Shown piece after piece: positions 19,588 through 41,989 of a stretch of 64,000 nucleotides of DNA. Position numbers and translations under genes: made by a program. The stretch comes from a virus, in IMG/VR virus record IMGVR_UViG_3300029314_000002, positions 5,460 through 69,459 of that record, one strand, 5' to 3'. The notes below the pieces were generated by a model, which saw nothing but the letters and a program-made list of their open reading frames with translations, searched no databases and was not told the origin of the DNA. Positions within the stretch are counted from its first letter, which is position 1; each line of letters starts with the position of its first letter.

Positions 19588-19965
19588 ATGAGCAGTGTTT
19601 TGGGTGAACGGGTGTTGTTGTGCCGACGTGATTTGGGGATGAATCAGTCGGAGTTGGCGCGGTTGTCTGGCGTGAGTCGGGCGCATATTTCACGTATGGA
19701 GACTGGGTACGTGACGAGTGTTTCGACGGATGTGTTGTTAGGGTTGGCGAAGGTGTTGAGGACGCGTGCGTCCTATTTGTTGGGTATATCGGATGATGGT
19801 GTGGGTGATGAGGATAGTATGGTGCAGGATAATACTGTGGTCTACGAGGTGGACACGCCTGATGAGCGGCGATTTATGGAGTCGTTGATGGCGGTGGTGA
19901 AAGATTTGAGTCGGGAGGATCGGGCTTTTCTTTTGTTGATGGCGGAGAAGCTGCGAAAGAGGTAG
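19588..19965 (+). CDS. XRE-family (CI-like) repressor
   Basis: LGMNQSELARLSGVSRAHISRMETG HTH. Confidence 0.9.
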   Translation: MSSVLGERVLLCRRDLGMNQSELARLSGVSRAHISRMETGYVTSVSTDVLLGLAKVLRTRASYLLGISDDGVGDEDSMVQDNTVVYEVDTPDERRFMESLMAVVKDLSREDRAFLLLMAEKLRKR

Positions 19966-20815: not shown

Positions 20816-21544
20816 ATGTCAAAAGGATGGGTGTTAAAAGTGCGGGCAATCTGCGCGTGCGCGGTTGGGCTGATGGCGGTTGTGCTGTTTGGGGGATGCG
20901 GGCGGTTGGCGCTGTTCTCTGCGCCCGCTACGCCGGTGGTGGTGACGCGCGTGGTGGAGGTGACGCGCGTGGTGACGGTGGTGGTGACGCGCGTGGCGGT
21001 GGTGACGCGCGTGGTGACGATGACGCCAACGCCAACGATGAGTCCTACGCGCGCGCCAACGATGACGCCAACGCCAGTGATGGTGATGGCGCCGGCCGGG
21101 TGGGTGACGTATACGCATCCGGCCGGGACGTTCTGGTTGTTGGTGCCTGGTGATGCCAGGGTGAACCGTGAGACGGTGGATACGACGACATTCGAGTTGC
21201 CCGGTCAGGTTGGGGTGGTGGTGGCGCTGGCGGCCGGGTCGGTGATGGTTGGAGATGAGGAGGCGATCTCTGATCTGGTGCGCGGGGTGTTGGGTGTGCA
21301 GAGTTCGCTGGATACGGTGCGGGTGTTGGGCCGTGGGTGGGTAACGGATCCGCTACGGGCGAATTATGTGGATTCTTCGGTCAAGGATTATGCGTCAGAG
21401 GTGGTGAATTATCGGCTCGATTTGGCTGCGCCGTTGACGGGTACGCGGTCGCTGCGCGGGGTTTTGCTGCGCCATGGGCGGGCGGTGACGGAGGCCGACC
21501 GGAGGCTGTTGGGGACGATGTTGGGGACGCTGCGTGTACGATAG
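20816..21544 (+). CDS. Lipoprotein with VVTRVV tandem repeats and PT-rich linker
   Basis: Signal peptide plus lipobox LFGGC. Confidence 0.7.
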   Translation: MSKGWVLKVRAICACAVGLMAVVLFGGCGRLALFSAPATPVVVTRVVEVTRVVTVVVTRVAVVTRVVTMTPTPTMSPTRAPTMTPTPVMVMAPAGWVTYTHPAGTFWLLVPGDARVNRETVDTTTFELPGQVGVVVALAAGSVMVGDEEAISDLVRGVLGVQSSLDTVRVLGRGWVTDPLRANYVDSSVKDYASEVVNYRLDLAAPLTGTRSLRGVLLRHGRAVTEADRRLLGTMLGTLRVR

Positions 21545-24604: not shown

Positions 24605-25534
24605 TCAGGCGGTCGGGGCCGAGGCGTAGATGATCCAGGCTTGGCCGATCTGGTCGCCGCCCATGCGCGTTCGCCAGCGGGCGGGGAGGAGGGAGCGGCG
24701 CAGCTCGTAATTGACGGCGGGGGTGGTCTGGCGACAATGGTCAACCATGCCGCCGGCACGAGCTTCGATCCAGGCGGCGGCCTGTGCGAGCCGGTCGGGG
24801 CCGGCAACGATGTAGAGGCATTTGGGGGGTTTGCGGCCGTTGGCAACCATGATTTTGATGCCGGCCGTGTGGCTGGTCTCAAGGTAGTAGGCGATCACGG
24901 GCTGCGTGGCGATCGCCAGGGGTTGTGCGGCAATTTGCGACGCCACTTTCGGCGAGACCAAGCTGGTGAGCAGTTGCCCCATGGCTGCAGCGTCAATTTT
25001 ACCCCAGTGGGCGCCCCACTGAGCGACGAAGAGTGCATCTTCGCGCCAGTCGCCGCAGATGAGGTAAATCTCGTGGGCCTTGGGGTCTTCGGTGGCCTGT
25101 ACGATCTGGGCATAGCCATGCCCGCCGATGTGGGTGGGCTGCAGGACGTAGGGGACGCCGTTGACGATGGTTGCGGCCTGCATGATCTGGGCGAGGGTCA
25201 TGGCCTGGGCGGTGGGCGGTTGGGCGGCGAGGCGGGCGGCTTTGAGGGCGATCCAGCCGGCGACCTGGTGGGCGCAGGCTTTGCGTCCGTTGACCAGGGG
25301 GGCGTCAAACCTGGCGTCGTTGCAGTCGCAGCCGCTGCCGGTGATGTGATAGCGGCCGGCGACGGTGATTGCGCCATCTGGTGCGACCACGACTGCATCA
25401 GCCCGCACGAGATCAACGGCGGTGGCGTACCGGTTGCCAACCTTGGCTTCGATAGCCCTGCTGGCGAGAATCGCCTGTTGGACGGCGGGAGAGTTGCTTC
25501 GCTGCACGGCTTGGGGTATAATTTGGGTGCTCAT
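24605..25534 (-). CDS. SWIM zinc-finger protein
   Basis: CDCNDARFDAPLVNGRKACAH. Confidence 0.6.
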   Translation of the reverse strand: MSTQIIPQAVQRSNSPAVQQAILASRAIEAKVGNRYATAVDLVRADAVVVAPDGAITVAGRYHITGSGCDCNDARFDAPLVNGRKACAHQVAGWIALKAARLAAQPPTAQAMTLAQIMQAATIVNGVPYVLQPTHIGGHGYAQIVQATEDPKAHEIYLICGDWREDALFVAQWGAHWGKIDAAAMGQLLTSLVSPKVASQIAAQPLAIATQPVIAYYLETSHTAGIKIMVANGRKPPKCLYIVAGPDRLAQAAAWIEARAGGMVDHCRQTTPAVNYELRRSLLPARWRTRMGGDQIGQAWIIYASAPTA

Positions 25535-25610
25535 GGAACGCTCCTTCCTGAGTATCTGGCCGGCGGATGGTGAGACATCTGCCGGCTGTTTTTTGTTCGT
25601 TCTATGTCAT

Positions 25611-25639
25611 ACTATATCATACTATAGGCGATTTGTCAA
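25611..25639 (-). promoter_or_regulatory. Consensus promoter TTGACA-N17-TATAGT
   Basis: Minus strand TTGACAAATCgcctatagtatgaTATAGT; ~45-bp block shared with 13055..13100. Confidence 0.65.
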
Positions 25640-25688
25640 TCTCCGAAGCTGACGAAATACTGACAAGTTATTGGATGTCATACGCCCG

Positions 25689-25717
25689 ATTGACAGGGGT
25701 GCGACGTTATGATATAG
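25689..25717 (+). promoter_or_regulatory. Consensus promoter TTGACA-N17-TATAGT
   Basis: TTGACAggggtgcgacgttatgaTATAGT upstream of the RHH gene. Confidence 0.65.
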
Positions 25718-25735
25718 TTGGGGAAAGGGGGCAAC

Positions 25736-25969
25736 ATGTACAATAAGCGAGAGGATAGTTTTCTGTTTCAGGTCAGGGTGAAGTATGACCTGCACGAGGC
25801 GGTGATGGCGCTGGTGAAGGAGACAGGGATCCCCGCGGCGGCGGTGATGCGCCGTGCGCTGGAGAATTGGGCGGCGACGGGCGGAGTATTGCCGGTGCGG
25901 GTTGTGAGACCTGAGACCGGAGACCTGAGACCGGAAGAACTCCCTTCTTCCACGAAACCCGATCTCTGA
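25736..25969 (+). CDS. Ribbon-helix-helix regulator
   Basis: FLFQVRVKYDLHEAVMALVKETGIPAAAVMRRALENW; the C-terminus runs into GAGACC repeats. Confidence 0.6.
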   Translation: MYNKREDSFLFQVRVKYDLHEAVMALVKETGIPAAAVMRRALENWAATGGVLPVRVVRPETGDLRPEELPSSTKPDL

Positions 25970-25999
25970 TCTCTGATCCATGATCTCTGATCTTTGACC
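25906..25999. repeat. GAGACCK heptamer run and inverted GATCTCT run
   Basis: gagacctgagaccggagacctgagaccgg ... gatctctgatctctgatccatgatctctgatcttt. Confidence 0.75.
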
Positions 26000-26013
26000 G
26001 GAGACCTGTGAGA

Positions 26014-26047
26014 GAGGCTGGACGCTCGCATCGTCCAGCCTCTTTTT
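26014..26047 (+). terminator. Terminator between convergent RHH and radC genes
   Basis: GAGGCTGGACG-ctcgcat-CGTCCAGCCTC + TTTTTGTTTT. Confidence 0.8.
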
Positions 26048-26063
26048 GTTTTGCGTTTGGACA

Positions 26064-26735
26064 TTAGAAGCCAAGTCCGCGCTCTTTGAGGGAGACCCAT
26101 CCGGGGTTGCCGATGATGATGTGATCGAGCACGTCTATGTCGAGCAGTTTGCCGGCTTCGACGATGGCGCGGGTGACGTTTACGTCTTCTGGGGAGGGCG
26201 AGGGGTCGCCAGAGGGGTGGTTGTGGGCGACGATGATGCAGGCGGCGTTGCGGCGGATGGCTGGGCGGAAGACTTCGGCAATGCGCACCCCCGCTGAGTT
26301 GACGCTGCCGATGGAGATGGTTTCGGTGCCGATGTGGCCGTTGCGGGTGTTGAGCAGGATGACGACGAGGTGCTCCTTTTCGTAGGTGCGCATGTAGAGG
26401 AGATGGTTGGCGGCATCCGCAGGGCTGAGAAGGGAGTCGCTGCGGTTGGGGGAGGTGAGGACGGCTCGCCGACCAAGCTCCAGGGCGGCTTTGATGCGCG
26501 CGGCGCGCGTGGGGCCGATGTCGGGGATGGCGGTGAGTTCTTCGAGGGTCATGTTGATGAGACCGGATAGGTGCCCGGCTCGGGCGATGAGGGCGCTGCT
26601 GGTGTCGAGGGTGGCACAGCCCAGGATGATTTGGAGTAATTCGCCGGCGTTGAGGGCGCCAGTGCCGAATGTTTCGGCGCGGTAGATGGGCCTTTCGGTG
26701 GCTGGCAGGTCACGCACACAGAGCTTGGCGGTCAT
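26064..26735 (-). CDS. radC: RadC-like JAB/MPN domain protein
   Basis: HNHPSGDPSPSPED JAMM motif; N-terminal helix-hairpin-helix region. Confidence 0.9.
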   Translation of the reverse strand: MTAKLCVRDLPATERPIYRAETFGTGALNAGELLQIILGCATLDTSSALIARAGHLSGLINMTLEELTAIPDIGPTRAARIKAALELGRRAVLTSPNRSDSLLSPADAANHLLYMRTYEKEHLVVILLNTRNGHIGTETISIGSVNSAGVRIAEVFRPAIRRNAACIIVAHNHPSGDPSPSPEDVNVTRAIVEAGKLLDIDVLDHIIIGNPGWVSLKERGLGF

Positions 26736-26780
26736 GAGAGTGATTCCTTTCTGACTGGGTTCGATTGAACTGACGGTCTC

Positions 26781-26809
26781 ACTCTCTCACAGGCAGATGG
26801 GGGTGTCAA
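26781..26809 (-). promoter_or_regulatory. Cassette promoter A: TTGACA-N17(TGa)-GAGAGT with conserved leader
   Basis: One of four near-identical promoter/leader units (see 28284, 30464, 31612). Confidence 0.5.
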
Positions 26810-26822
26810 TCTCTTGACGATT

Positions 26823-27098
26823 CGAGTTTATCCCTGAGTTTTGGAAGGTTGACGGGAGTGGGTTTGGGATACGGCAGAGGTGGGGCGCCGATGTGGCGCG
26901 CGGATGCGCGAAAGAATGCTTGCCCAGGAACTGCTGAGAGGCGCTATGAGCGTCTGCGGCATAGGACGGTATGGTGTGAGGGCGATGATGCCTGGGAGCG
27001 CCCAGGAGGTAGCCGGTTGGCGGAGGAATGACGATGGGGTGAAGGTGAGAGGTTTCAGTGAACGCGGGCAGATGCGCCTGGGGGCATCTGTCGGGGAA
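26823..27098. repeat. ~270-nt conserved non-coding element, copy A
   Basis: Alignable to 30506..30765 at roughly three quarters identity by eye, with a 1-nt indel that breaks every frame. Confidence 0.75.
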
Positions 27099-27100
27099 GA

Positions 27101-27134
27101 CACAGGCGGCGACATGCAGATGTCGCCGCCTGTG
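27101..27134. terminator. Hairpin ACAGGCGGCGACAT-N-ATGTCGCCGCCTGT (copy A)
   Basis: 15-bp stem; the T-rich run (TTGTTT) lies on the plus strand; near-identical to 30890..30922. Confidence 0.6.
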
Positions 27135-27158
27135 TTGTTTGGGTAGAGAGGGGCAGGT

Positions 27159-27782
27159 TCAATCGAAAAGGGTGGGGTTTTCGGGGAATTCAGGGAACAA
27201 TTCGGGGGACGCGGCAGATTTGGATGTGCGCTTGCCCCAGGTGATTTCGATGAAGTCGTTCTGCCAGTAGTGGGCTGCGCGATCGGTGTAGGGATCGGGG
27301 GTTTCGGAGGGCGGGTTGAGTTGACAACCGATTTCGAGCCAGTGCTGGACGCCACGGGCCATTGAACGGCCGCGGCCGGTGTGTTTGTCCAGGGCGTAGT
27401 CGGGGACTTCAAGGCGCTTGCCGTGCAGCCGGTCCTGGTGAACGGCGCATTGGAAGTGGTCGGCCAGCCTGGATTTGGGGGATCGGCACATGACGAGGAT
27501 GGTGTTGGCGAGGATGAGCCGGGCGCTGGAGTCTTTGCCCTCGCTGCGCATCTCGAAGTAGAGGGTGCGCTGGTTGGGGACAAGGGCGAGCAGGCCGGGG
27601 TTGGCGATGCCGATGTCTTCGTTGGCGATGATGATGAGCCGGCGCCAAAGGTACGTTTCGAACTTGGGGATGAGTTCGAGCGACCAGTACATGGCAGCTT
27701 CTTCGTTGGCACGGCGAATCTCTTTTTGCAGGGACGAGATTACGTCGAACAGGTTGTAGTGGTTTTGGGTGACGATGTTCAT
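27159..27782 (-). CDS. Stand-alone MgsA_C/RarA-lid-like helical protein (no AAA+ core)
   Basis: YNLFDVISSLQKEIRRANEEAAMYWSLEL...RRLIIIANEDIGIANP. Confidence 0.65.
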   Translation of the reverse strand: MNIVTQNHYNLFDVISSLQKEIRRANEEAAMYWSLELIPKFETYLWRRLIIIANEDIGIANPGLLALVPNQRTLYFEMRSEGKDSSARLILANTILVMCRSPKSRLADHFQCAVHQDRLHGKRLEVPDYALDKHTGRGRSMARGVQHWLEIGCQLNPPSETPDPYTDRAAHYWQNDFIEITWGKRTSKSAASPELFPEFPENPTLFD

Positions 27783-27804
27783 GTGTGATCTCCTTTGGTG
27801 CGAA

Positions 27805-27833
27805 AGTTTCGCACGCCTGTTCTAATATGTCAA
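27805..27833 (-). promoter_or_regulatory. Promoter TTGACA-N17(TGc)-GAAACT
   Basis: The -35 hexamer overlaps the stop of the upstream gene; palindrome GTGCGAAAgTTTCGCAC in the leader. Confidence 0.45.
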
Positions 27834-28237
27834 TCCTGATCCGGGAGCATGAGGGTGATGACGGGTTCGGCGTTGTCGCCGGGGCCAACGACGAGCTTGA
27901 AGGTGAAGATTTCACGGTCTTCGATGCCGGTGATTTTGACCTGGAATAGCACTGTGGCGGGATCGGGGCGGGCGATGATGTAGCGCAGGCTCATCCACAT
28001 GATGTCGTTCCAAATGCCGGTCAAGTCGTTGTGGAGAAGCGGGTTGTCTGCGGCTTGCTCGATGATGAAGAAGACTTCGGCGGTCATGGCGATGGGGTAT
28101 TTGTAGGTTTGCCGGCTGATCTGTCCGAGTGGGCCGGTGGAGGCATCTACGAGAACGCCGTCGGCGATGGCTTGTGCTCTGCTGTAGCTGAAGATGAGAT
28201 CGGCGTCTGTCCAGGGGGCGGTGGGCGGGATGTTCAT
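27830..28237 (-). CDS. Hypothetical protein of a plasmid/ICE-associated family (name not recalled)
   Basis: Start MNIPPTAPW; IFSYSRAQAIADGVLVD ... GPGDNAEPVITLMLPDQD. Confidence 0.6.
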   Translation of the reverse strand: MNIPPTAPWTDADLIFSYSRAQAIADGVLVDASTGPLGQISRQTYKYPIAMTAEVFFIIEQAADNPLLHNDLTGIWNDIMWMSLRYIIARPDPATVLFQVKITGIEDREIFTFKLVVGPGDNAEPVITLMLPDQD

Positions 28238-28283
28238 GATTTTGCTGTCCTTTCTGGCTAGATTTGATTGAACTGACAGGTTG

Positions 28284-28312
28284 ACTCTCGCACGAGAGGC
28301 ATGAGAAGTCAA
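28284..28312 (-). promoter_or_regulatory. Cassette promoter D: TTGACT-N17(TGc)-GAGAGT with leader
   Basis: Shares AGAGATTGAC, GAGAGT, GTCAGTTCAATC and CAGAAAGGA blocks. Confidence 0.5.
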
Positions 28313-28405
28313 TCTCTTTGGTGGGCGAGTTTTCACGCAGGTTTCCACCAGTTTTTGTCGCCGACCGGCCCTGGCTGGGGGCAGGGCCGGCCGCGTTGGA
28401 ATGGG

Positions 28406-29416
28406 TCAGGGGCGGAGTTGGCTGCCGGAGCGGAGGGGGCTGGGGCCGTGCGGCGGGTAGGCAAAGCCGGCTTCGAGTATGGCCTGGTAGAAGCTGCCGA
28501 TGATAGGGGCGATGGCCTGCAGGTGCGGGTCAGGGTTGGTGAGCAGCTCATGGATGTAGGTTTCGATGCTGAGGCCGATTGAGCCTACGCGGCGCATTTT
28601 GGGGATGGCGCCATCCACGGGGAAAACGGGCTGCTGCCAGGCGGTGCGGCTGGCGGCATGGTCGTCGAGGGTTTGGGTGATGAAGAAGTCAAGGTTGAAC
28701 ATTGTGTCCTGGGCTTGTTCGGCGCGCAGGCGGTTGCAGATGGCGCGGAATTCGCGCAGGAGGGGGCGCTCGGAGGTGTTCAGGTAACGGAAGGCGATGA
28801 ATTGGCGGTTGCGGTCGAGATCGGCCATGCACTCGCCGAATTGGACGCCGACGATGTTCTGTTGGACAAGGCGTTGTACGTCGGGGATGAGGTGCAAGAG
28901 GCTGAGGCGGGCCTGGATGCGTTTGGGGGTGACTTTGGCGGTGCGGGCGAGATGGGCGATTGTCCAGTCGAATTGGTCGAGGCGCTTTTGGTAGGCGCGG
29001 GCTTCGTCAATAGGGTCTATGTCAACGCGATGGACGTTTTCGATGAGCATGATGGCGCTGGCTTGCTGATCGGTGAGGTCGCGGATGATGGCGGGGACGG
29101 TGGGCCAGGCGAGCAGGCCGATGGCGCGCCAGCGGCGTTCGCCGGCGACGATCTGGTAGACGGCGGGCCAGGTGGCGCCGGCGCAGTCGCAGTATTCGGT
29201 GGGGCGGTCGCCTGTGCAGGTGATTTGGCGGCAGCGTGGGCAGTGGTAGAGGGGGCGGACGGTGATGGGTTGGATGAGGCCTTCGGCTGCGATGCTGTCG
29301 GCGAGGGTCTGGAGGTCTTCGGGGCGGAAGACGGTGCGGTCGTTGTCGCCAGTGCTGATCTGGTGGTAGGGGATGGGGGTGATGGTCGGCTGGACTGTGT
29401 GCGAATCGGCAGGCAT
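28406..29416 (-). CDS. ParB/Srx-family protein with zinc-ribbon insert
   Basis: GLIQPITVRP ... IVAGERRWRA ... MLIENVHR; CPRCRQITC...CDC. Confidence 0.85.
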   Translation of the reverse strand: MPADSHTVQPTITPIPYHQISTGDNDRTVFRPEDLQTLADSIAAEGLIQPITVRPLYHCPRCRQITCTGDRPTEYCDCAGATWPAVYQIVAGERRWRAIGLLAWPTVPAIIRDLTDQQASAIMLIENVHRVDIDPIDEARAYQKRLDQFDWTIAHLARTAKVTPKRIQARLSLLHLIPDVQRLVQQNIVGVQFGECMADLDRNRQFIAFRYLNTSERPLLREFRAICNRLRAEQAQDTMFNLDFFITQTLDDHAASRTAWQQPVFPVDGAIPKMRRVGSIGLSIETYIHELLTNPDPHLQAIAPIIGSFYQAILEAGFAYPPHGPSPLRSGSQLRP

Positions 29417-29488
29417 GGTCAGGTCCTTTCATGGTGAACGATGGGGCCAGCAGCGGGGGGCTGCTGGCGACTGAGAATGAATCGGGGA

Positions 29489-30418
29489 TCAATGCGGACG
29501 ATTGGCGAACACGCTGATGCAGCGTTGCTGGAGTTCGGTAACTTTTTCGCCGTAGGCGATCCAGGTTGCTTTGGGCCAGCCGTAGGGGATTCGGGCGCTG
29601 CCCGGTTTTCGCTGCGTCTGGCCGAGGGCTTGTAGAAGCTCGTCGCCGGCCTCTTGCCATTCTGGGCAGCACAGCTGAAAATCGAATTTGGGTGATTGGG
29701 GAACCTGGGCGGCACGGTGGCAGAGGCCGAGGGCGGTGGTGATGTAGCCGATGGCTTTGATGCTGTTCAGGGTGGCGGCGAAGATGCGAAACTCGATTGT
29801 CTGTTTGCTGTTGAACAGGTTGCACAAGTTGAGCGTGTGGTAGCGATCTTCGATTTTGCGCTCTTTGACCAGGTCAAGATCGTCGGTTGTGGCGATGAGC
29901 ATGTTTTCGTCACGGGTTTTGACGGTTTTGCAGTAGTCGTTACGCATGCGCTCAGGAGAGTTGATGGTGGCGTAGATGCCGAATTCGTGATGGCTGACCA
30001 GGTTGAGGATGCGATGAAGGAAACGCACCATGACCGGCGATGTTTCCGGGGATTCGCCCAGCAGGGAGGCGATGCCTACGTGTACGTGGAAGCCGCAGGT
30101 GCTGTTGATTTTGGCTTCTGCGGCGTTGAGCAAGTCGAAGATTTGGACGATTTCTGAGATGCCCTGACTGCCGTGCAACACCGGGGAGACGATTTCGAGC
30201 GGCGTGTAGCCGGCGGGACAGTTGCGCAGGGAACTATCGGCCTGGGTTTCCCACAGCGGCGGGAAGGGGGCGGGAAGGGCGTACCCGTGATGGTAGCGAC
30301 CAATGCGGATGGCGTTCTCCCACAGATAGGAGTTGGGGAGGAAACACTCGATCTCTACGCCGAAGGTGATTTGCTCGGCGTCAACGGTGATGAAGCGGGA
30401 CTTGTTATTGGCGGCCAT
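29489..30418 (-). CDS. Amidoligase_2-type (GS-like carboxylate-amine ligase) enzyme
   Basis: FGVEIE, LEIVSP, CGFHVHVG, TIEFRIF; start MAANNK (30418) fits the cassette RBS spacing. Confidence 0.75.
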   Translation of the reverse strand: MAANNKSRFITVDAEQITFGVEIECFLPNSYLWENAIRIGRYHHGYALPAPFPPLWETQADSSLRNCPAGYTPLEIVSPVLHGSQGISEIVQIFDLLNAAEAKINSTCGFHVHVGIASLLGESPETSPVMVRFLHRILNLVSHHEFGIYATINSPERMRNDYCKTVKTRDENMLIATTDDLDLVKERKIEDRYHTLNLCNLFNSKQTIEFRIFAATLNSIKAIGYITTALGLCHRAAQVPQSPKFDFQLCCPEWQEAGDELLQALGQTQRKPGSARIPYGWPKATWIAYGEKVTELQQRCISVFANRPH

Positions 30419-30463
30419 GGGTGACATTCCTTTCTGACTGGGTTCGATTGAACTGACGGTCTC

Positions 30464-30492
30464 ACTCTCTCACCGACAAATCGGGGGGTCAA
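30464..30492 (-). promoter_or_regulatory. Cassette promoter B: TTGACC-N17(TGa)-GAGAGT with leader
   Basis: Leader identical to copy A over about 45 nt. Confidence 0.5.
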
Positions 30493-30505
30493 TCTCTGTG
30501 CGGCA

Positions 30506-30765
30506 CGAGTTTATCCCTGAGTTTTGGAAGGTTGGCGAGGTTGATTTTGGGATACGGCAGAGGTGGGGCGCCGATGTGGCGCGCGGGCGCTCTGAAAGTG
30601 CTCACCCAGGAACTGCCGGAAGGCGCCATGCGCGTGCTGGGCATAGGACAGTATGGCGTGAGGGCGATGGCACTTGAGAGCACCCATGAGCCGCCGGTTG
30701 GCGTTGGGGATGAAGGGAGATGTGCTTGGTGAACGCGTGTGGATGCACCTGGGGGCATTTGTGAG
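30506..30765. repeat. ~270-nt conserved non-coding element, copy B
   Basis: See 26823..27098. Confidence 0.75.
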
Positions 30766-30829
30766 GGCGTTGCGGTGAATTGGTTTGGGGGTTTGGTGGC
30801 TTAGATGTATAATTGGCGGGAGCCTTCTT

Positions 30830-30870
30830 GTCCTTTCTGGCTGTGATTGAACTGACATTCTCCATGACTA
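30830..30870 (-). repeat. Orphan leader remnant (copy E) without ORF
   Basis: GTCAGTTCAATCacagcCAGAAAGGAca, followed by no start codon. Confidence 0.6.
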
Positions 30871-30889
30871 GGGACGATGATAAGAGGCG

Positions 30890-30927
30890 ACAGGCGGCGA
30901 CATGTCACATGTCGCCGCCTGTTTTTG
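30890..30927. terminator. Hairpin ACAGGCGGCGACAT-N-ATGTCGCCGCCTGT (copy B)
   Basis: 14-bp stem followed on the plus strand by TTTTTGTTT. Confidence 0.65.
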
Positions 30928-30933
30928 TTTGGT

Positions 30934-31563
30934 TCAGGAAAGGGCGAGGAAGGAGGCGAAAAGGGCGGTGGATGTCGGGGACTGCAAGATTTCAGGGTGC
31001 CATTGTACTGAGATGACGGGCAGGCGGGGGTGTTCGATGGATTCGACGATGCCGCCGGCTGTGGCGGCGATGCGCCAGCCGGCGGGGACATCGGCGACGG
31101 CCTGGTGGTGCAATGAGTTGACCTGACAGGTGCGCGTCTTGAGGATGCGGCTGAGCCGGCTGCGAGAGACGATGACGATGTCGTGGATGTTCGAGCGATG
31201 TTCGATGCCAGTATCCTGCCAGATGTCCTGGTGGAGGGTGCCGCCGGCGACGGCGCAAATCATCTGGTGCCCGCGACAGATGCCCATGATTGGTTTGGCG
31301 TCAGCCAGGGCAAGGGTGGCGAGGCCGTATTCGAGCGGATCGCGGCGGGATGCGACGGGGTGGGCGAAGCGCACGCGGGTATTGTAGTAGGATGGGTGAA
31401 TGTCGGCGCCGCCGGGGAGGAGGATGTGCGAGGCCTTTTCGTACATTTTGTACGGGTTTTCGTTGGGGGCGAGGATGTGGACGCTGGCGCCGAGGGTGCT
31501 GAGTCTCCAGCAGATGTGGTCCGTGAAGGAGCCTGGGGTGACGAGGACATGCGGTTTGACCAT
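30934..31563 (-). CDS. Class-I glutamine amidotransferase (peptidase C26 / PuuD-like)
   Basis: GICRGHQ nucleophile elbow; VQWHPE. Confidence 0.85.
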   Translation of the reverse strand: MVKPHVLVTPGSFTDHICWRLSTLGASVHILAPNENPYKMYEKASHILLPGGADIHPSYYNTRVRFAHPVASRRDPLEYGLATLALADAKPIMGICRGHQMICAVAGGTLHQDIWQDTGIEHRSNIHDIVIVSRSRLSRILKTRTCQVNSLHHQAVADVPAGWRIAATAGGIVESIEHPRLPVISVQWHPEILQSPTSTALFASFLALS

Positions 31564-31611
31564 GAGAATGATTCCTTTCTGATCTGTGAATTCGGTTGAA
31601 CTGACGGTCTC

Positions 31612-31640
31612 ACTCTCTCACAGGCCAATCGAGGTGTCAA
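31612..31640 (-). promoter_or_regulatory. Cassette promoter C: TTGACA-N17(TGa)-GAGAGT with leader
   Basis: Same architecture as copies A and B. Confidence 0.5.
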
Positions 31641-31724
31641 TCTCTGGGCGGTACGAGTTTATCCCTGAGTTTTTTGGGACTGATTTGGGATACGGGAAAC
31701 GAGTTTGGTCGACGCGCGTGCGCG

Positions 31725-31772
31725 AAAAAACCAGAAGCCTCGTGAATCGGTGTTCACGAGGCTTCTGGTTTT
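31725..31772. terminator. Bidirectional terminator
   Basis: AAAAAA-CCAGAAGCCTCGTGAA-tcggtg-TTCACGAGGCTTCTGG-TTTT. Confidence 0.8.
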
Positions 31773-31795
31773 GTGGGGGGGCGATGGGCGCCCGT

Positions 31796-32338
31796 TTATG
31801 CGGCGCTGGGCGCTGCAAGGATGGTGTTGTTGGGGCCAACGCTAAGGCCGGCCGGGGTGAGCAGGATGTCGAGCAGGGTCTGGTGATCTTGGGTGGACGT
31901 TCCGATCTGCTCTGCTATGCCCTGGCCGATCATTTGGTAGGATGTGACGGCGCCCCCTCGGGCCAGTTCGATGAGGACGTTTTGTCCGGTATATGTGGTG
32001 TACATGACGTTTCTCCTTATTTTTCTTCTTGTCTTGCCACCTGACCGCCCAGGTGGGCAATCGCCGCTAGCAGGCAGGCCAGCCGGCGTTGATTCAATTC
32101 TGTGCCCACGAAGGGCTTGCCTGCCCGGTAGGCTGCCAGCCCTACCAGGCCGCGGCCCATGCAGCGGCGCCGGGCTGGGCGTGATTTCAACCGCCAGCAT
32201 GGCCGCGATGCGATCCATCACGTCCATGCGGACGGCGATCTGCGCCAGGGCCACGTCGAGCGGGACGCCCAGGCGGCGAGCCAGGTTGTCGAGCCGGGTG
32301 GCCGTATCTGCGGATAGGGTGAGCGTGCGGTCGTTCAT
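31796..32338 (-). CDS. RHH-type N-terminus + P/G/R-rich linker + 69-aa C-terminal module (which may also be made separately from ATG 32005)
   Basis: RTLTLSADTATRLDNLARRLGVPLDVALAQIAV; in-frame internal AAGGAG-N6-ATG at 32005. Confidence 0.5.
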   Translation of the reverse strand: MNDRTLTLSADTATRLDNLARRLGVPLDVALAQIAVRMDVMDRIAAMLAVEITPSPAPLHGPRPGRAGSLPGRQALRGHRIESTPAGLPASGDCPPGRSGGKTRRKIRRNVMYTTYTGQNVLIELARGGAVTSYQMIGQGIAEQIGTSTQDHQTLLDILLTPAGLSVGPNNTILAAPSAA

Positions 32339-32346
32339 CTGGGCCT

Positions 32347-33345
32347 CTATAGCGGAATCTCTGCCATCATCTGGTCGCGGGCTTTGCCGAAGTTGAGGGT
32401 GGTCTCCGGGATGCCGGCGAGGAGTTCCTGCGCCTGCTGGATCAGCAGGGACAGCTCGGCGCGCGGCGTTTCTCGAAACGGAATGCGCTTGCTGTATTGG
32501 TAGTTGATGTGCATGTCGAAGATATGAATGTCTAGCGTCGTCTGCCCGGCCAACTTGCGTAACAGGGCCAGATCGTGCGCCTGGTCTGGGTTCGCCTGGC
32601 TTGGATTGAGAAAAGTCTCGAACTTGAGCGGATGGCCCGGCTGATCCCTGATCTCCAGCGCCAGGCGGATCACGGCGCCGGCGTCAGGGTAGAGGCCAAG
32701 CATGGTCTGGAACGCCACCGGCACGCCGGGGCGATGTGCGCTTTGTGCGTCTTTCCGTTCGCACTTGACGATGATGGCGACCTGGTCGTTCACCTCCATC
32801 GCTACGGCGGTCGCCTCCGGCCACATGCGCAGCACCTGCGCCACATTCACTGGTAATGAGACTGACATAGGTTCCTCTCCTTCGATGAGTCTGTAGATGC
32901 CGGCCGACCGATTGCCGGCGCCAGTCGTTTCGGCACGCCGCCATAGACGTGACGGCAATGTGATGTTGTGCTGCTCGACGCGATCGCCGGGTTGCACGGG
33001 CGGGCGGCCGGCCATCGTGCCGCGCACGCCGCCAGGGCGGTCGGAGCGCGGGGCGCGGTCAACGACGGTCGAGAGGGGGGTCGCAACGCCTATGTCATGA
33101 ATTGGCACATCAAGGAGCAGATCAATCGTGAGTTTGGTGTGCCGCTTCCCTTCGTCCCCGGAGAGGACGTGAGCGTTGTCGCCATCGTCCCAGCCGATGA
33201 GGGCCTTCCAGTATTGTCCGGGACGCGCAGACTCCAGATGGGAGCCGTTGCGCGCGACGATGAGCAGCCGGCGCGGCGGGTTGGCTGCGTAGTAGTAACG
33301 GCGGGCGCCATCTATGGTCTGCTCGCCAGTCTTGATGACACGCAA
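32347..33345 (-). CDS. Hypothetical protein; in-frame internal start at 32868 (173-aa product) has a strong RBS
   Basis: AAGGAGAGG-N5-ATG precedes MSVSLPVNVAQ. Confidence 0.5.
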   Translation of the reverse strand: MRVIKTGEQTIDGARRYYYAANPPRRLLIVARNGSHLESARPGQYWKALIGWDDGDNAHVLSGDEGKRHTKLTIDLLLDVPIHDIGVATPLSTVVDRAPRSDRPGGVRGTMAGRPPVQPGDRVEQHNITLPSRLWRRAETTGAGNRSAGIYRLIEGEEPMSVSLPVNVAQVLRMWPEATAVAMEVNDQVAIIVKCERKDAQSAHRPGVPVAFQTMLGLYPDAGAVIRLALEIRDQPGHPLKFETFLNPSQANPDQAHDLALLRKLAGQTTLDIHIFDMHINYQYSKRIPFRETPRAELSLLIQQAQELLAGIPETTLNFGKARDQMMAEIPL

Positions 33346-33415: not shown

Positions 33416-33448
33416 TTGCAAATTATAGAACATGTGTTCTATAATTTG
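33416..33448 (+). promoter_or_regulatory. Promoter TTGCAA-N18-TATAAT overlapped by a 30-bp perfect palindromic operator
   Basis: CAAATTATAGAACA-TG-TGTTCTATAATTTG. Confidence 0.65.
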
Positions 33449-33495
33449 GCATTGACGAATGCTTGTTACGTAGTTGTATGAGATCAGGAGGGTGT

Positions 33496-34209
33496 ATGTC
33501 GGTTGATTTTGGGGGTATGCGCGTGGTGAAGGCGAATGATCTGCTGCCGGATGAGCATAATGCAAATCTGGGGACGGATCGGGGGCGCGGGATGTTGGAT
33601 AAGTCGCTGCGCGATTTGCGGGCAGGGCGTTCGATCCTGGTGGATCGGAATGGGAAGGTGATTGCCGGCAATAAGACGCTGCAGAGCGCAGCCGGGGTGG
33701 GGATTGAGGAGATCATCATTGTGCCAACGGACGGGAGCCGGCTGGTGGCTGTGCAGCGCACCGACCTGGATTTGGACACAGACGCCGATGCTCGCGCCCT
33801 GGCCTATGCCGATAATCGCGTGGCCGAGCTTGATCTGGTGTGGGACATCGAGCAGTTGATGCGCGACATCGAGAGCGGCGTGCAGCTCGATGGCTACTTC
33901 TACGATGATGAGGTGGCCCGGCTTATCGAGGGCATCATCGAGGACGAGAAGGGGGATAAAGCCAAAAAGGCGGGCGGTGACGCGGCGCCGGCGATGGCGT
34001 TGCAGCCGTTCGAGCATTACGACTATGTGATGCTGGTGTTCAGGAATCAGATGGACTGGACGAAGGCCGTGTCGTTCCTGGGCATTGACCGGGCGGCGTT
34101 CGATATTGGGAAGGGCCGGCGCAAGGTTGGGATGTGCCGGGTGATTGATGGCGCGAGGGCGATAGATAAATGGGAATCAGGGTCGTCATTCCAAGTAAGA
34201 GCCGAGTAG
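33496..34209 (+). CDS. ParB-like nuclease-domain protein
   Basis: Start MSVDFGG (GGAGGG RBS); LLPDEHNANLGTDRGRGMLDKSLRDLRAGRSILVDRNGKVIAGNKTLQSA. Confidence 0.7.
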   Translation: MSVDFGGMRVVKANDLLPDEHNANLGTDRGRGMLDKSLRDLRAGRSILVDRNGKVIAGNKTLQSAAGVGIEEIIIVPTDGSRLVAVQRTDLDLDTDADARALAYADNRVAELDLVWDIEQLMRDIESGVQLDGYFYDDEVARLIEGIIEDEKGDKAKKAGGDAAPAMALQPFEHYDYVMLVFRNQMDWTKAVSFLGIDRAAFDIGKGRRKVGMCRVIDGARAIDKWESGSSFQVRAE

Positions 34210-34901
34210 GGGATTGCCGCACCGCGCTTGCGCTGTTTCCTGGGGCCACGGTTGTGGTCAATGAGGAGCAGGCGCAGCAGTATGAGGTGCTGGGGGCGCC
34301 GCTGCTGGCGCACCCCAAAGACTTGTGGGGGATTGGGCCGCTCAAGAATTGGATTCTGGATCATGTGGATGATGAGTGTGTGTTCATCGTGGACGATGAT
34401 GTGTACCAGGTGCGCTCGCCGGTTGGTTCTCCGACCAGGTCACATGTGATTCGTGATCCAGAGGCGATTCGGCAGTTTGTGGAGAATACGGCGGAGATTG
34501 CGCGGGGGATTGGGGCGCCTGTGTTTGGTTTCGATCAGACGGGCGGGGATACGCGTAAGTTCAGGCCGCAGGACCCGATGAGGTTTTGCGGGTGGGTGGG
34601 TGCGGCGATGGGGATCGTTGGGCGGGAGATTCGTTTCGATCCTGAGTTGCGGATTCGGGCGGATATTGATTTTTGTCTGACGGCGCAGTTGCGCCGGCGG
34701 GTGATTGTGATGGACGGGCGATTTTCGTTCATTCACAGGAAGCGGTGGAGTTATCCGGGAGGAAATAGCCTGAGCCGCAGCGGGAAGCGGAATCAGGCGG
34801 AGTTGGCTTATCTGCAGCGAAAGTGGGGGGAATGGATTACGGTGCAGAATTCGGCGACGACGACGCTGATTGTGGTGAATGTGGAAAGGAGATGGCGATG
34901 A
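34170..34901 (+). CDS. GT-A-like glycosyltransferase candidate
   Basis: VVIPSKSR ... ECVFIVDDDV (DxD-like); family not verified. Confidence 0.5.
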   Translation: MGIRVVIPSKSRVGDCRTALALFPGATVVVNEEQAQQYEVLGAPLLAHPKDLWGIGPLKNWILDHVDDECVFIVDDDVYQVRSPVGSPTRSHVIRDPEAIRQFVENTAEIARGIGAPVFGFDQTGGDTRKFRPQDPMRFCGWVGAAMGIVGREIRFDPELRIRADIDFCLTAQLRRRVIVMDGRFSFIHRKRWSYPGGNSLSRSGKRNQAELAYLQRKWGEWITVQNSATTTLIVVNVERRWR

Positions 34902-36166
34902 CGCGCGTGTGCGTGATTGGGCTTGGGTATGTGGGGACGGTGGTGGCGGGGTGTCTGGCGGCAATAGGACATCGGGTGATGGGGGTGGAGAAGGATCGGC
35001 AGCGAGCGGATGATTTGCGGGAGGGCCGGCTGGCGGCGGCAGAACCGGGGTTGGGTGATTTGTGGGCGAGGGCGCTGGCGGGCGGGGCGCTGACGGTGGA
35101 GGATTCAATTGGGTATGCGGTGGAGCGGTGTGATGTGGTGATGTTGTGTGTGGGGACGCCTGCGGTGGCGGGCGGTGGGTTCGATTATGGGGATCTGCGG
35201 GCGGGATGCGAGGAGGTTGGGAGGGCGTTGGCGAATCAGGCGGAACGGCGCTTGGTGGTGGTGCGGAGTACGGTGACGCCGGGAACAACGCGCGGGGTGG
35301 TGGTGCCGGCAGTCGAGCGGGCTGCAGGGAAACGCGCGGGCGATGGGTTTGGGGTGATTTATAATCCTGAGTTTCTGCGTGAAGGGTATGCGGTGGGGGA
35401 TTTTATGCGGCCTCCGTTCGTGGTGATTGGGGGGGACGATGCGCAGGATCGGGCACAGTTGCGGGAGTTGTATGTTGGGGTTGATGGGCCGCTGGTGGAG
35501 ACGGCGGTGGAGACGGCGGAGCTGGTGAAGTTGGTGAGTAATGTGTGGCACGCGTTGAAGGTGACTTTTGCGAATGAGATGGGGCGGATGAGTCGCTCGC
35601 TGGGGGTGAACGGGCAGGAGTTGATGGAGATTTTTTGCCGTGATGAGCGGTTGAATATCAGTGCTGCATACCTGCGCCCTGGTTTTGCGTTTGGGGGGCC
35701 GTGTTTGCCGAAGGATGTGCGGGCGTTGATGGGGTTGGGGGCGCAGCGCGGGCTGATGTTGCCATTGTTGGAGGCGGTGCTGCCGAGTAACGATGTGCAT
35801 GTGGAGCGCGCGGCGCAGGTGGTGAAGCAGACGCGCGCGGAGCGGATTGGGGTGATTGGTTTGGCGCACAATCAGCATACGGGTGATCTGCGGGATAGTC
35901 CGGCGCTGCGGTTGATTGGGTGCTTGACGAATGGGGAGCTGCGCCGGCGGGTGCGGGCGTTCGATGAGTCGGTGCCGGTGGCGCCGGTGAGAGACGAGGC
36001 GCAGGTGGAGGTTGTGGGGTGTATAGAGGATGTGGTGCGGTGGTGCGAGGTTTTGGTGGTGACGACGAAGGTTGATTATGGGCAATTGCGGTTGCGGCCT
36101 GGGCTGTTGGTGGTTGATTTGACGCGCGGTGATGAGGGTGCGTTTTTACAAATGGGGGTAGCGTAG
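34898..36166 (+). CDS. ugd: UDP-glucose/GDP-mannose 6-dehydrogenase family enzyme
   Basis: VCVIGLGYVGTVVAGCLA Rossmann; GFAFGGPCLPKD catalytic Cys; ATGA overlap with the upstream stop. Confidence 0.9.
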   Translation: MTRVCVIGLGYVGTVVAGCLAAIGHRVMGVEKDRQRADDLREGRLAAAEPGLGDLWARALAGGALTVEDSIGYAVERCDVVMLCVGTPAVAGGGFDYGDLRAGCEEVGRALANQAERRLVVVRSTVTPGTTRGVVVPAVERAAGKRAGDGFGVIYNPEFLREGYAVGDFMRPPFVVIGGDDAQDRAQLRELYVGVDGPLVETAVETAELVKLVSNVWHALKVTFANEMGRMSRSLGVNGQELMEIFCRDERLNISAAYLRPGFAFGGPCLPKDVRALMGLGAQRGLMLPLLEAVLPSNDVHVERAAQVVKQTRAERIGVIGLAHNQHTGDLRDSPALRLIGCLTNGELRRRVRAFDESVPVAPVRDEAQVEVVGCIEDVVRWCEVLVVTTKVDYGQLRLRPGLLVVDLTRGDEGAFLQMGVA

Positions 36167-40358: not shown

Positions 40359-40673
40359 ATGGCCGGGACCAACACGTCCTCACTGGCAACGTTGCCAGTG
40401 AGAGAAGAATTCACCACCAATCTACCAGAGGGGACGATGGCGCACGGGGCTTTGCTGGCTTTGCGACGAGCACATTTGAGGGCGCTCACGCAGTTGGCGG
40501 GGTATCTACGCCAGACCCTGTCGCCGGCCGAGCGCGAGCTGTGGCTGCGGATTCGGCAGGCCAGGTTGATCGAACTGGGAGCGGTTGAGGAGTACCTGGC
40601 GTTGCCGAGGACGGTGATGCCGCGGCGTAAGCGGAAGAAGACCGTAGATTGCGGATGGGAAAAAGAACGGTGA
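40359..40673 (+). CDS. Hypothetical protein (contains palindrome copy 2)
   Basis: Start MAGTNTS chosen within ORF 40275..40673. Confidence 0.35.
   Translation: MAGTNTSSLATLPVREEFTTNLPEGTMAHGALLALRRAHLRALTQLAGYLRQTLSPAERELWLRIRQARLIELGAVEEYLALPRTVMPRRKRKKTVDCGWEKER
40379..40402. repeat. Perfect palindrome CTCACTGGCAACGTTGCCAGTGAG, copy 2
   Basis: Identical to 16341..16364. Confidence 0.9.
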
Positions 40674-41989
40674 CTGATGGCGTGATACTACATGTCGGCG
40701 ATTGCCTGGACGTTATGCGGGCAATGGAGCCAAACAGCGTTGACGCCATTGTGACCGATCCTCCCTATGGGCTGGGGTTCATGGGGAAGGATTGGGATCA
40801 CGGGGTGCCGGGCGTGCAGTTCTGGCGTGAGGCGCTGCGAGTTGCCAAGCCTGGGGCGCATCTGCTGGCGTTTGGCGGTACCCGGACATTCCACCGGCTG
40901 GCTGTGACGATTGAGGATGCGGGATGGGAGATTCGGGATACGATCATGTGGGTGTATGGATCGGGTTTCCCGAAATCGCACGATGTGAGCAAGGCGATTG
41001 ACAAGGCGGCAGGTGAAACACGCGAGCGGATCCGGGGCGTGCGCTCCGGTGTCGTGCGAGGAACCTACGCGCAAGACGAATGGTCGAAGGAGTTCAAAGA
41101 TTCCGTGTTGTCGCCCAATCCGATCACTTCCGACGCCGCACGCTGGCAGGGTTGGGGCACGGCGCTGAAACCGGCGTGGGAGCCGATCATTGTGGCCCGG
41201 AAGCCTCTGCAGGGGACGGTGGCCGCCAATGTGCTTGAATGGGGCACGGGAGCGATCAATGTGGATGGGTGTAGGGTGGGGACGGCTGAAGACCTGAATC
41301 CCACAGACTATGACGATTCACGACGCACAGCGCCAAAGTTCAGCGGGAAGTATAACAACGGGAAGGATGGACAATACCGCGCCAGGACTGGCGCGGTACC
41401 ACCGGGAAGATGGCCTGCAAACGTCATTCACGACGGCAGCGATGAGGTGGTGGCGGGGTTTCCAGTGACGGGGAACAGTTACCGCGAGAACCGCGAAAAT
41501 CACAAGCCGGTCGTAAGTGGTATGTTTCACGGTTCCAACGGCGCAACGCCACACAATGACGCCGGCAGTGCTGCGCGCTTCTTCTACTGTGCGAAGGCGA
41601 GCAAGGCGGATCGGGATGAGGGGCTGGATGGGATGGATGAGCGTGATGCAAGTGTGGGCGATAGGCGACCAAGCGGAAGTATGAGCCAGCGCATACATGC
41701 AGACGAAGGTAGACCAGATACCACGGCCCGCAACCATCACCCGACGGTCAAGCCAATCGCCCTCATGTGCTACCTGGTGCGGTTGGTGACACCGCCTGGC
41801 GGGGTGGTGCTCGATCCGTTCATGGGCAGTGGCAGCACGGGCAAGGCGGCAATGTTGGAAGGTTTCCGCTTCATCGGGATCGAGATGGACGCTGATTACC
41901 TGGACATTGCGCGGCGGCGTATTGGGGCGGTGCGGCTTCCGCTGTTGCAGATTGAGCAGGATGGCGCAATGGAGGATGGGAGCAGGTGA
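40649..41989 (+). CDS. Beta-class N6A/N4C DNA methyltransferase
   Basis: IVTDPPYG (motif IV) then VLDPFMGSGSTG (motif I). Confidence 0.9.
   Translation: MRMGKRTVTDGVILHVGDCLDVMRAMEPNSVDAIVTDPPYGLGFMGKDWDHGVPGVQFWREALRVAKPGAHLLAFGGTRTFHRLAVTIEDAGWEIRDTIMWVYGSGFPKSHDVSKAIDKAAGETRERIRGVRSGVVRGTYAQDEWSKEFKDSVLSPNPITSDAARWQGWGTALKPAWEPIIVARKPLQGTVAANVLEWGTGAINVDGCRVGTAEDLNPTDYDDSRRTAPKFSGKYNNGKDGQYRARTGAVPPGRWPANVIHDGSDEVVAGFPVTGNSYRENRENHKPVVSGMFHGSNGATPHNDAGSAARFFYCAKASKADRDEGLDGMDERDASVGDRRPSGSMSQRIHADEGRPDTTARNHHPTVKPIALMCYLVRLVTPPGGVVLDPFMGSGSTGKAAMLEGFRFIGIEMDADYLDIARRRIGAVRLPLLQIEQDGAMEDGSR

Follow-up and report, generated by a model that had tools for sequence, protein, structure and literature searches.

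Conserved promoter-like cassettes head shuffled accessory-gene modules in a temperate phage with a probable Chloroflexota host

We analyzed a 64,000-nucleotide (nt) stretch of viral DNA (positions 5,460 to 69,459 of IMG/VR record IMGVR_UViG_3300029314_000002; this whole stretch is the window referred to below) in which a promoter-like sequence with a 5' leader, here called the cassette, recurs ahead of several accessory genes, together with a longer element that is present in two copies. We found that these genes form a plastic island in which each unit is headed by a cassette. With moderate confidence, we read the cassettes as regulatory and the ~200-nt element as an upstream DNA extension of the cassette that precedes an amidoligase gene. 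The island features are read on the minus strand, and the region covered was 26400 to 32500.

The four full cassettes end at the ATG codons of radC (26735), a DUF6573 gene (28237), an Amidoligase_2 gene (30418), and a gene for a class I glutamine amidotransferase (GATase; 31563). A repeat finder returned them as a four-member family of 83 nt with 63 to 100% identity and also returned a five-member family that includes an orphan leader at 30837 to 30862. The 12-mer GTCAGTTCAAYC occurs exactly five times in the window, always in the island and always on the minus strand, while chance expectation for a 12-mer with one two-fold position is ~0.02 per 64 kb by our own estimate. Likewise, AGAGATTGAC has exactly four occurrences, all on the minus strand in the island, and GTATCCCAAA and GATAAACTCG are found in three cassettes each and nowhere else in the window. 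A preliminary description of this sequence had reported four full cassettes, one orphan leader, two long copies of the element, and two near-identical hairpins; all were found in place, with a recurrence far beyond chance. Each cassette is ~130 to 170 nt long and has the order stem-loop, GTATCCCAAA, phased AAACTCG repeats, AGAGATTGAC, 17-nt spacer, (TGn)GAGAGT, GTCAGTTCAATC, CAGAAAGGA, and ATG. The AAACTCG(TG) direct repeats, two or three in number and ~11 nt apart, lie upstream of the putative promoter. The AAACTC box AAAACTCAGGGATAAACTCG, described earlier in three copies, was recovered in those copies 8 nt from AGAGATTGAC, and the GTATCCCAAA box, which is part of three cassettes, is an addition to that description (positions of both in Table 1).

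The predicted promoter of each cassette combines a perfect TTGACA -35 hexamer and a 17-nt spacer, which ends in TGA or TGC and carries a TGn/TRTG motif, with a -10 hexamer, GAGAGT, that matches the consensus at three of six positions and keeps A-11 and T-7, the two bases that matter most. In many copies the spacer ends TGTG-A, which we take to be the Gram-positive "-16" arrangement. A simple sigma-70 consensus scan called none of the cassette promoters, while it did call canonical TTGACA-17-TATAGT promoters 1 kb from the cassettes. As the consensus is presumably what the host polymerase reads, promoters of the cassette type are probably weak alone or dependent on a factor. Downstream, the 12-mer GTCAGTTCAATC falls at about +1 to +12 and is conserved in sequence and not in structure: eight of nine full-cassette leaders were unstructured (z = +0.25 to +1.3), and the leaders formed no conserved hairpin. 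The Shine-Dalgarno sequence CAGAAAGGA lies 9 to 10 nt before the ATG in all four window cassettes, and an unstructured leader with a strong Shine-Dalgarno sequence fits efficient translation.

Searches of public sequence collections with the island and its motifs gave few relatives. BLAST of 26000 to 32400 against plasmid and phage records returned only short hits within radC, ParB, and DUF6573 and no phage match; the leader pattern gave two chance matches within unrelated sequence in Joint Genome Institute (JGI) metagenomes; and four patterns of the window lineage gave zero or chance-level matches in IMG/VR, none of which was confirmed by profiles. A scan of GTDB genomes gave 13 matches, of which contig L016 was the only real one. 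Two of the others (L014 and L020) proved to be unrelated coding sequence, and the remaining ten lacked a second cassette motif. Protein-guided retrieval yielded five contigs, L107 (96.7% identical to the window), L006, L007, L008, and L016, which belong to the same sublineage. RadC homologues beyond those of L007 and L008 stood in other contexts, and two loci examined (L159 and L160) carry no cassette.

All five sublineage contigs have the cassette, and 14 distinct copies could be aligned over ~150 nt. The consensus of these copies reads, upstream, GTATCCCAAA, ~19 nt, AAACyCG, ~6 nt, ctGGGGATAAACTCGTG, 8 nt, rGwGATTGACa, and a 17-nt spacer, followed downstream by GAGAGT, GAGaCC, GTCAGTTCAATC, ~8 nt, CAGAAAGGr, 5 to 10 nt, and ATG. 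The amidoligase cassette is 80 to 85% identical between the window and L007 or L008, while the amidoligase coding sequence is 69 to 70% identical, with changes at ~44% of its third codon positions. In the comparison of the window with L107, identity is 99 to 100% for cassettes A and B and 97 to 99% for the genes. Thus, the cassette is better conserved than the genes that it heads, which argues that it is under purifying selection. In a profile search, the promoter core, GATTGACA followed by TGTGAGAGAGTGAG, reached a wider phage clade (L022, L024/L027, L028, L108, L110, L117, and L119, with amidoligases 44 to 48% identical), where it occurs three to five times per locus in the form cgTGATTGACA, 17 to 18 nt, TGTGAGAGAGTGAG. 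The leader 12-mer is confined to the window sublineage. The inverted pair of boxes GTATCCC and GGGATAA is present as a pair in 12 of 18 cassettes and absent as a pair from the other six. GGGATAA always lies 16 nt from GATTGAC, and the spacing between the two boxes is either 31 to 32 nt or 21 nt, a 10-nt step that amounts to one helical turn less; the shorter spacer is that of cassette C in the window, as opposed to 31 to 32 nt in the other class I cassettes. This paired presence and helical-step spacing point to the upstream boxes as candidate protein-binding sites on DNA.

Gene order in the island differs among lineages, and each gene or gene pair retains a cassette. The window and L107 have the order GATase, amidoligase-ParB, DUF6573-MgsA_C, RadC; L007 has GATase, RadC, amidoligase; and L008 has MgsA_C, RadC, amidoligase, and a gene for a 91-amino-acid (aa) protein. 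In L016 the order differs again, with two further cargo genes. L006, which is otherwise 95 to 98% identical to the window, carries after the amidoligase gene an extra module (terminator, cassette, and 91-aa gene) like that of L008. This module lies at 968 to 1576 of L006, between the amidoligase and ParB genes, and the 5' end of the L006 ParB gene differs as well. The amidoligase, GATase, and ParB genes of the distant clade are packed tightly into one operon served by a single promoter, so that one cassette per gene is a departure from the arrangement of that clade. Of the two explanations first offered for the repeats, the one of a modular promoter cassette with swappable genes has therefore gained support: the same cassette heads different genes in relatives, the order is shuffled, and one contig has an extra module. 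This pattern fits accessory genes that are transcribed independently under shared regulation and shuffled as modules, each marked by a cassette.

A stem-loop precedes each of the four cassettes, and only one of the four is a canonical sense-direction terminator (Table 1). The two hairpins that had been described with T-runs on the plus strand do have them; hairpin B scores as a plus-strand terminator, and hairpin A has a weaker tail on that strand. Between the window (27102 to 27133) and L107 (9612 to 9647), hairpin A differs in its 4-nt loop, which is inverted (CTGC versus GCAG), with both 14-nt arms unchanged in contigs that are otherwise 97% identical; judged from this comparison, a perfect palindrome has had its loop flipped. 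The orphan leader follows the GATase terminator in the window and likewise in L007, which holds an orthologous copy identical at 24 of 26 bases.

Table 1. Positions of cassettes, stem-loops, long elements, and cargo genes of the island in window coordinates.
Feature	Position	Strand	Details
Bidirectional intrinsic terminator	31725..31772	-	After 69-aa/180-aa gene, directly upstream of cassette C; AAAACCAGAAGCCTCGTGAA..TTCACGAGGCTTCTGGTTTTTT
Cassette C, class I, heads GATase	31564..31693	-	GTATCCCAAA 31684-31693; AAACTC boxes 31654-31673; AGAGATTGACA 31635-31645
Cassette C, downstream part		-	GAGAGT 31612-31617; GTCAGTTCAACC 31594-31605; CAGAAAGGA 31573-31581; ATG 31563
Class I glutamine amidotransferase / Peptidase_C26, cargo	30934..31563	-	Pfam 5.9e-38
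Hairpin B	30890..30922	-	14-nt arms ACAGGCGGCGACAT; 11 nt after GATase stop; T-run on plus strand only
Orphan leader	30831..30856	-	GTCAGTTCAATC-ACAG-CCAGAAAGGA; no promoter, no start codon at Shine-Dalgarno spacing
Long element, copy B	30556..30770	-	Constrained core ~30559-30711
Long element, copy B, motifs		-	11-nt-phased tandem repeats (CTCATGGGTGC / TCTCAAGTGCC); CCATACTGTCCTATGCC 30640-30656; GCAGTTCCTGGGTGAGCA 30599-30616; GCGCC-N5-GGCGC 30568-30582
Cassette B, class I, heads amidoligase and ParB-like genes	30419..30555	-	GTATCCCAAA 30546-30555; AAACTC boxes 30506-30525; AGAGATTGACC 30487-30497
Cassette B, downstream part		-	GAGAGT 30464-30469; leader 30446-30457; Shine-Dalgarno 30428-30436; ATG 30418
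Amidoligase_2 (29489-30418) and ParB_N + HTH_ParB protein (28406-29416), cargo	28406..30418	-	Pfam 1.1e-21 and 3.3e-21
Stem-loop after ParB-like gene	28365..28392	-	GGCCGGCCCTG..CAGGGCCGG
Cassette D, class II (no GTATCCC/GGGATAA pair), heads DUF6573 and MgsA_C-like genes	28238..28345	-	AGAGATTGACT 28307-28317
Cassette D, downstream part		-	GAGAGT 28284-28289; leader 28266-28277; Shine-Dalgarno 28248-28256; ATG 28237
DUF6573 (27830-28237) and MgsA_C-like protein (27159-27782), cargo	27159..28237	-	Pfam 3.5e-21 and 1.3e-13
Hairpin A	27102..27133	-	14-nt arms identical to hairpin B; 25 nt after MgsA_C-like stop
Long element, copy A	26873..27100	-	Duplicate of copy B, window sublineage only
Cassette A, class I, heads radC	26736..26872	-	GTATCCCAAA 26863-26872; AAACTC boxes 26823-26842; AGAGATTGACA 26804-26814
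Cassette A, downstream part		-	GAGAGT 26781-26786; leader 26763-26774; Shine-Dalgarno 26745-26753; ATG 26735
RadC-like JAB protein, cargo	26064..26735	-	Pfam 4e-40

The long segment shared by copies A and B of the element, as had been noted, was found as three blocks at 78 to 88% identity (88% over 179 nt, 26725 to 26903 versus 30408 to 30586; 78% over 92 nt; 82% over 39 nt), parted by indels of 1 and 10 to 11 nt; the shared length is ~200 to 270 nt, and each copy begins at the hairpin. We aligned seven copies, A and B of the window, A and B of L107, and those of L006, L007, and L008. The conserved parts are short blocks, namely, YTCCWGGGYGC tandem repeats phased at 11 nt, the invariant 17-mer CCATACTGTCCTATGCC, GCGCCTTCCGGCAGTTCCTGGG, and the inverted repeat GCGCC-N5-GGCGC. 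Substitutions in the element have no period of three (chi-square P = 0.3 to 0.98, compared to 1e-6 to 1e-12 for the neighboring genes), indels are of 1, 10, 11, 23, and 44 nt, and the element resembles no open reading frame (ORF) of the fetched loci. The long element is thus non-coding DNA. The description of every reading frame as broken held as regards the 1- and 10- to 11-nt indels and the lack of codon periodicity, and failed as regards copy B, whose minus strand has mechanically called ORFs of 89 and 115 aa; these are not conserved and are broken in L107.

The core of the element (~115 nt and the 3' 50 nt) diverges by 26 to 32% from that of L007 and L008, compared to ~44% at third codon positions, which argues that the core is constrained; the 5' third cannot be aligned with those two contigs. 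In every lineage that has it, the element stands before the amidoligase cassette. Copy A, before radC, is confined to the window, L107, and L006; at the radC position of L008 and L016, nothing but the last ~50 nt of the element is present. This restricted distribution argues for a duplication of hairpin, element, and cassette to the position before radC. In addition, the window and L107 versions of element A share only 80% identity, within a region that is otherwise ~98% identical and between flanking genes at 97 to 98%, and copy A of L107 shares 90% with copy B of the window; these comparisons indicate gene conversion between the two copies.

Our best reading of these data is that the element would act at the DNA level as a cis-regulatory extension of the amidoligase cassette that was duplicated before radC. 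In the working that we propose, host RNA polymerase would start at each cassette, and a common factor of phage or host origin acting via the shared boxes would switch the units together. The stem-loops, each of which would end the preceding unit, may insulate neighboring units from one another, and the shared cassette sequence would offer a site for homologous recombination by which gene modules are moved, added, or dropped between related phages. The ~200-nt element, with its 11-nt-phased direct repeats, invariant 17-mer, and small inverted repeat, would extend the amidoligase cassette upstream; hairpin, element, and cassette would have been duplicated as one before radC in the window sublineage, and the copies would still swap sequence by gene conversion.

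Several observations weigh against this reading. The block TGTGAGAGAGTGAG is conserved beyond the needs of a -10 hexamer and GAGAGT departs widely from the consensus, so these promoters may involve an additional factor or another holoenzyme. No sigma factor or RNA polymerase was found among the ORFs tested, and many ORFs are without annotation. The hairpins after the MgsA_C and GATase genes have no T-run on the sense side; that they insulate the units is assumed. A plain promoter-leader model cannot account for an orphan leader that is kept in the window and in L007 with neither promoter nor ORF. Lastly, the sense strand of copy B folds somewhat better than shuffled sequences (z = -2.7), and with the element found in only three to four independent lineages, the negative result for RNA structure given below has low power.

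As a tentative possibility that goes further, the cassettes may together be the operators of a regulon that is the phage's own, with the conserved 12-mer at +1, kept across lineages also as the promoter-less orphan, acting in a stoperator-like manner. The ~200-nt element would then be a new cis module for control of the amidoligase and radC units, working either as an enhancer-like array of protein-binding sites or as a new small RNA.

The alternative first offered for the long element, a structured non-coding RNA or single-strand-active element, fared poorly. As had been stated, the element belongs to no recognized Rfam family: covariance-model searches gave zero matches at gathering scores in the whole window, zero at E ≤ 1 in 25400 to 32000, and zero in six related loci. 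RNAalifold gave consensus folds of -12 to -18 kcal/mol on either strand with 0 to 2 compensatory pairs and a covariation term that was about zero or unfavorable. We therefore find a structured RNA not supported, at low power. It is unlikely that the element is transcribed in sense and works as RNA, whether as a small RNA or as a structured intergenic or 5' leader segment made by read-through of the hairpins that lack a sense U-tract. In favor of such an RNA, minus-strand folds mildly beat shuffles (the z of copy B given above and -1.8 for copy A); the long-range stem behind the value for copy B is 82% paired over the seven copies and has several G-U pairs that are valid on the sense strand only; and an ORF-less region at the same position in the distant clade is bracketed by two sense-direction terminators. 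However, the stem is lost in independent lineages, with only 10 of 20 positions paired in L008 and most of it deleted in L007, the covariation and Rfam results give it no support, no convincing promoter lies upstream of the element, and homology with the distant-clade region lacks statistical support. The case for that homology, with the ORF-less region upstream of the amidoligase gene in L022, L024, and L108, was a likeness of short motifs matched by eye, and nhmmer profiles run in both directions found no connection. That the distant-clade region itself encodes a small RNA, given its -10-like box CCATATAAAC, hairpin, and sense terminator, is an idea only.

We consider it quite unlikely that the element is some other cis-acting DNA site, such as an attachment site arm, an iteron origin, or a partition-type site for the ParB-like protein. 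The 11-nt-phased tandem direct repeats with a small inverted repeat, the ParB_N and helix-turn-helix (HTH) gene in the same unit, and the placement of the analogous region of L024 directly downstream of an integrase would suit such a site, but there are two copies in one genome, the window integrase is ~4 to 8 kb from them, no parS-like 16-bp palindrome is present, and the element is absent from the radC position in L008 and L016. Still less probable is an antisense non-coding RNA, suggested at the outset, that would run on the plus strand from near the cassette to the hairpin with the plus-strand T-run. The terminator score of hairpin B and an A-tract on the minus-strand 5' side of both hairpins are consistent with this idea. 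Against it, a consensus scan found no plus-strand promoter in or beside either element, the sole candidate being a 9/12 match right by the hairpin; plus-strand single-sequence folds equal shuffles (z = -0.5 and -0.3), with one compensatory pair in the consensus fold; the matching terminators in L007, L008, and L016 are sense oriented or bidirectional; and the hairpins sit 11 and 25 nt after the stop codons of minus-strand genes.

A decayed gene, with cassette repeats that are recent duplications of no regulatory meaning, is very improbable. The two mechanically called ORFs span copy B, and copy A is fast evolving and may be degenerating, but the coding tests described above, which had been named as the way in which a decayed gene would show itself, found no codon-periodic substitution, no triplet indels, no conserved ORF in relatives, and no protein similarity to ORFs in related loci, and the cassettes are conserved where the genes are only 56 to 73% identical at the protein level. 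A plasmid-type single-strand promoter (Frpo/ssi-like) active on entering single-stranded DNA (ssDNA) is hardly tenable: the genes recall plasmid leading regions (RadC, ParB-like, and DUF6573), but the replicon is a tailed double-stranded DNA phage, and ssDNA folds of 26736 to 27140 on both strands gave a 16-bp terminator hairpin and small local stems, with no long hairpin that unites -35 and -10.

The window encodes a terminase large subunit, a portal protein, and a major head protein, as well as an integrase and a Cro/CI-type HTH protein. From this gene content, the replicon is a temperate tailed phage that bears an integrase, and neither a plasmid nor an integrative and conjugative element. 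The window matches a 69-kb contig from a wastewater metagenome (ENA ERZ965188 k127_68809). L016, which holds three cassettes, is binned to an Anaerolineae metagenome-assembled genome (MAG), and the closest named relatives of the RadC and amidoligase proteins are in MAGs of Anaerolineae and other Chloroflexota; the host is probably a bacterium of the Anaerolineae (Chloroflexota). The 180-aa protein of the island, earlier labeled as a ribbon-helix-helix protein, matches RHH_1 weakly (E = 0.18, below the Pfam cut-off), which makes the label a weak one. The candidate DNA-binding proteins of the phage are the ParB-like protein, an HTH_3 repressor (19588 to 19965), this 180-aa protein, and the product of an 83-aa ORF.

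We also noted features of the window outside the cassettes. Two DNA methyltransferases, one of them fused to ParB, a TAGT glycosyltransferase, and a UDP-glucose dehydrogenase are encoded at 33463 to 36166, 14886 to 17216, and 40649 to 41989, which suggests hypermodification of the phage DNA. GC skew is strongly positive (+0.13 to +0.51) over nearly all of 6000 to 64000 regardless of gene orientation, which makes the minus-strand island genes C-rich and G-poor and gives rise to many long spurious ORFs. A perfect palindrome, AAATTATAGAACACATGTTCTATAATTT, lies at 33420 to 33447 (core 33427 to 33440), in the divergent intergenic region between a leftward 332-aa gene and rightward genes. Its core, AGAAC-N4-GTTCT, matches the LexA (SOS) box of the Gram-positive/Chloroflexi type, and a similar TAGAACAT..GTTCT stands beside a canonical promoter in L024 and L022; the palindrome suggests SOS-controlled expression. 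Imperfect tandem repeats of 18, 24, and 42 nt (GGTGGTGACGCGCGTGGTG...) are found at 20927 to 21082, inside a plus-strand ORF (20816 to 21544).

Downstream of radC, back-to-back consensus promoters (TTGACA-17-TATAGT, each with a TG) lie on opposite strands (25611 to 25718 and 25718 to 26046). The plus-strand promoter of the pair precedes an 83-aa ORF with a weak RHH_1 match (E = 0.017) and a plus-strand terminator at 26010 to 26046, and short tandem repeats, GGTCTCAGGTCTCC and GATCAGAGATCA, are found at ~25900 to 26000. By its layout, this region looks like a second regulatory switch. In the distant clade (L024, 14293 to 14690; L022, 13059 to 13480), radC has a canonical TTGACA..TATAAT promoter on its downstream side, and behind that promoter come ~250 nt of conserved sequence devoid of ORFs and then a strong terminator. 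Between L024 and L022 the identity is 77%. The ORF-free sequence has no Rfam match and is absent from the window; it is a candidate for a new non-coding RNA or long leader.

The closest known analogue of the cassette appears to be the PeSL (promoter-early stem-loop) of T4-type phages, which combines a terminator, an early promoter, and a Shine-Dalgarno sequence, lies in hyperplastic regions, and mediates modular shuffling (Arbiol et al. 2010, PMC2839356; Comeau et al. 2014, PMC4122927). Both are units of stem-loop, promoter (a predicted one in the cassette), and Shine-Dalgarno sequence repeated before non-essential genes in a plastic region, with insertions, deletions, and reordering between related phages at the units, and in both the stem-loops are thought to insulate. 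The phage studied here is probably not a T4-like myovirus; it is temperate, has an integrase, and probably infects Chloroflexota, and it has 4 copies compared to ~50 PeSLs. The cassette is also longer (130 to 170 nt), with conserved upstream boxes and a conserved 12-mer that is predicted to be transcribed, its -10 hexamer is the non-consensus GAGAGT where PeSLs match the sigma-70 consensus, and its stem-loop stands apart from the promoter instead of being interleaved with it. PeSLs form encapsidated mini-circles; the promoter of the cassette is a prediction.

The morons of temperate phages are units of promoter, gene, and terminator inserted between conserved genes. The modules described here resemble them as autonomous transcription units with accessory cargo, and the 91-aa gene module, present in L006 and L008 and absent from the window, is an example; morons usually carry unrelated promoters, whereas the units here share one conserved regulatory sequence. 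The stoperators of cluster A mycobacteriophages are short asymmetric sites, bound by the immunity repressor, with one orientation to transcription that occur at promoters and at promoter-less intergenic positions (PMC9283540, PMC6550527), and cluster K phages have start-associated sequences (PMC3203893). The 12-mer GTCAGTTCAATC and its orphan copy would fit the single orientation and promoter-less placement of the former, so that the orphan may, by analogy with the sites described in PMC9283540, be a stoperator-like repressor site, and the cassette resembles the latter in placing a conserved sequence just before start codons. There is no sequence similarity to either and the copies here are far fewer, so these are functional analogies only. 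The non-coding units that lie between early, anti-defence-like genes recall Frpo/ssi elements (PMC13478746, PMC12672017), but without a long promoter-forming ssDNA hairpin, and in a phage, the element is not a member of that family.

The general principle of such cassettes is already known, and they open no long-standing question. What they add is an extension of modular gene shuffling of the PeSL type beyond T4-like phages and a conserved promoter-operator-leader consensus that can be tested directly. Phages of Chloroflexota, filamentous bacteria of activated sludge, are to our knowledge almost unstudied, and we know of no promoter or operator grammar for them. As a search tag, the cassette would point to downstream genes as candidates for early, anti-defence, or DNA modification functions; its cargo here consists of RadC, DUF6573, a ParB-like protein, an amidoligase with GATase, an MgsA_C-like protein, and small proteins of unknown function. 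If the cassettes are indeed the operators of a phage regulon, they would be the first regulatory grammar described for Chloroflexota phages and would provide a sequence tag for early and anti-defence cargo genes.

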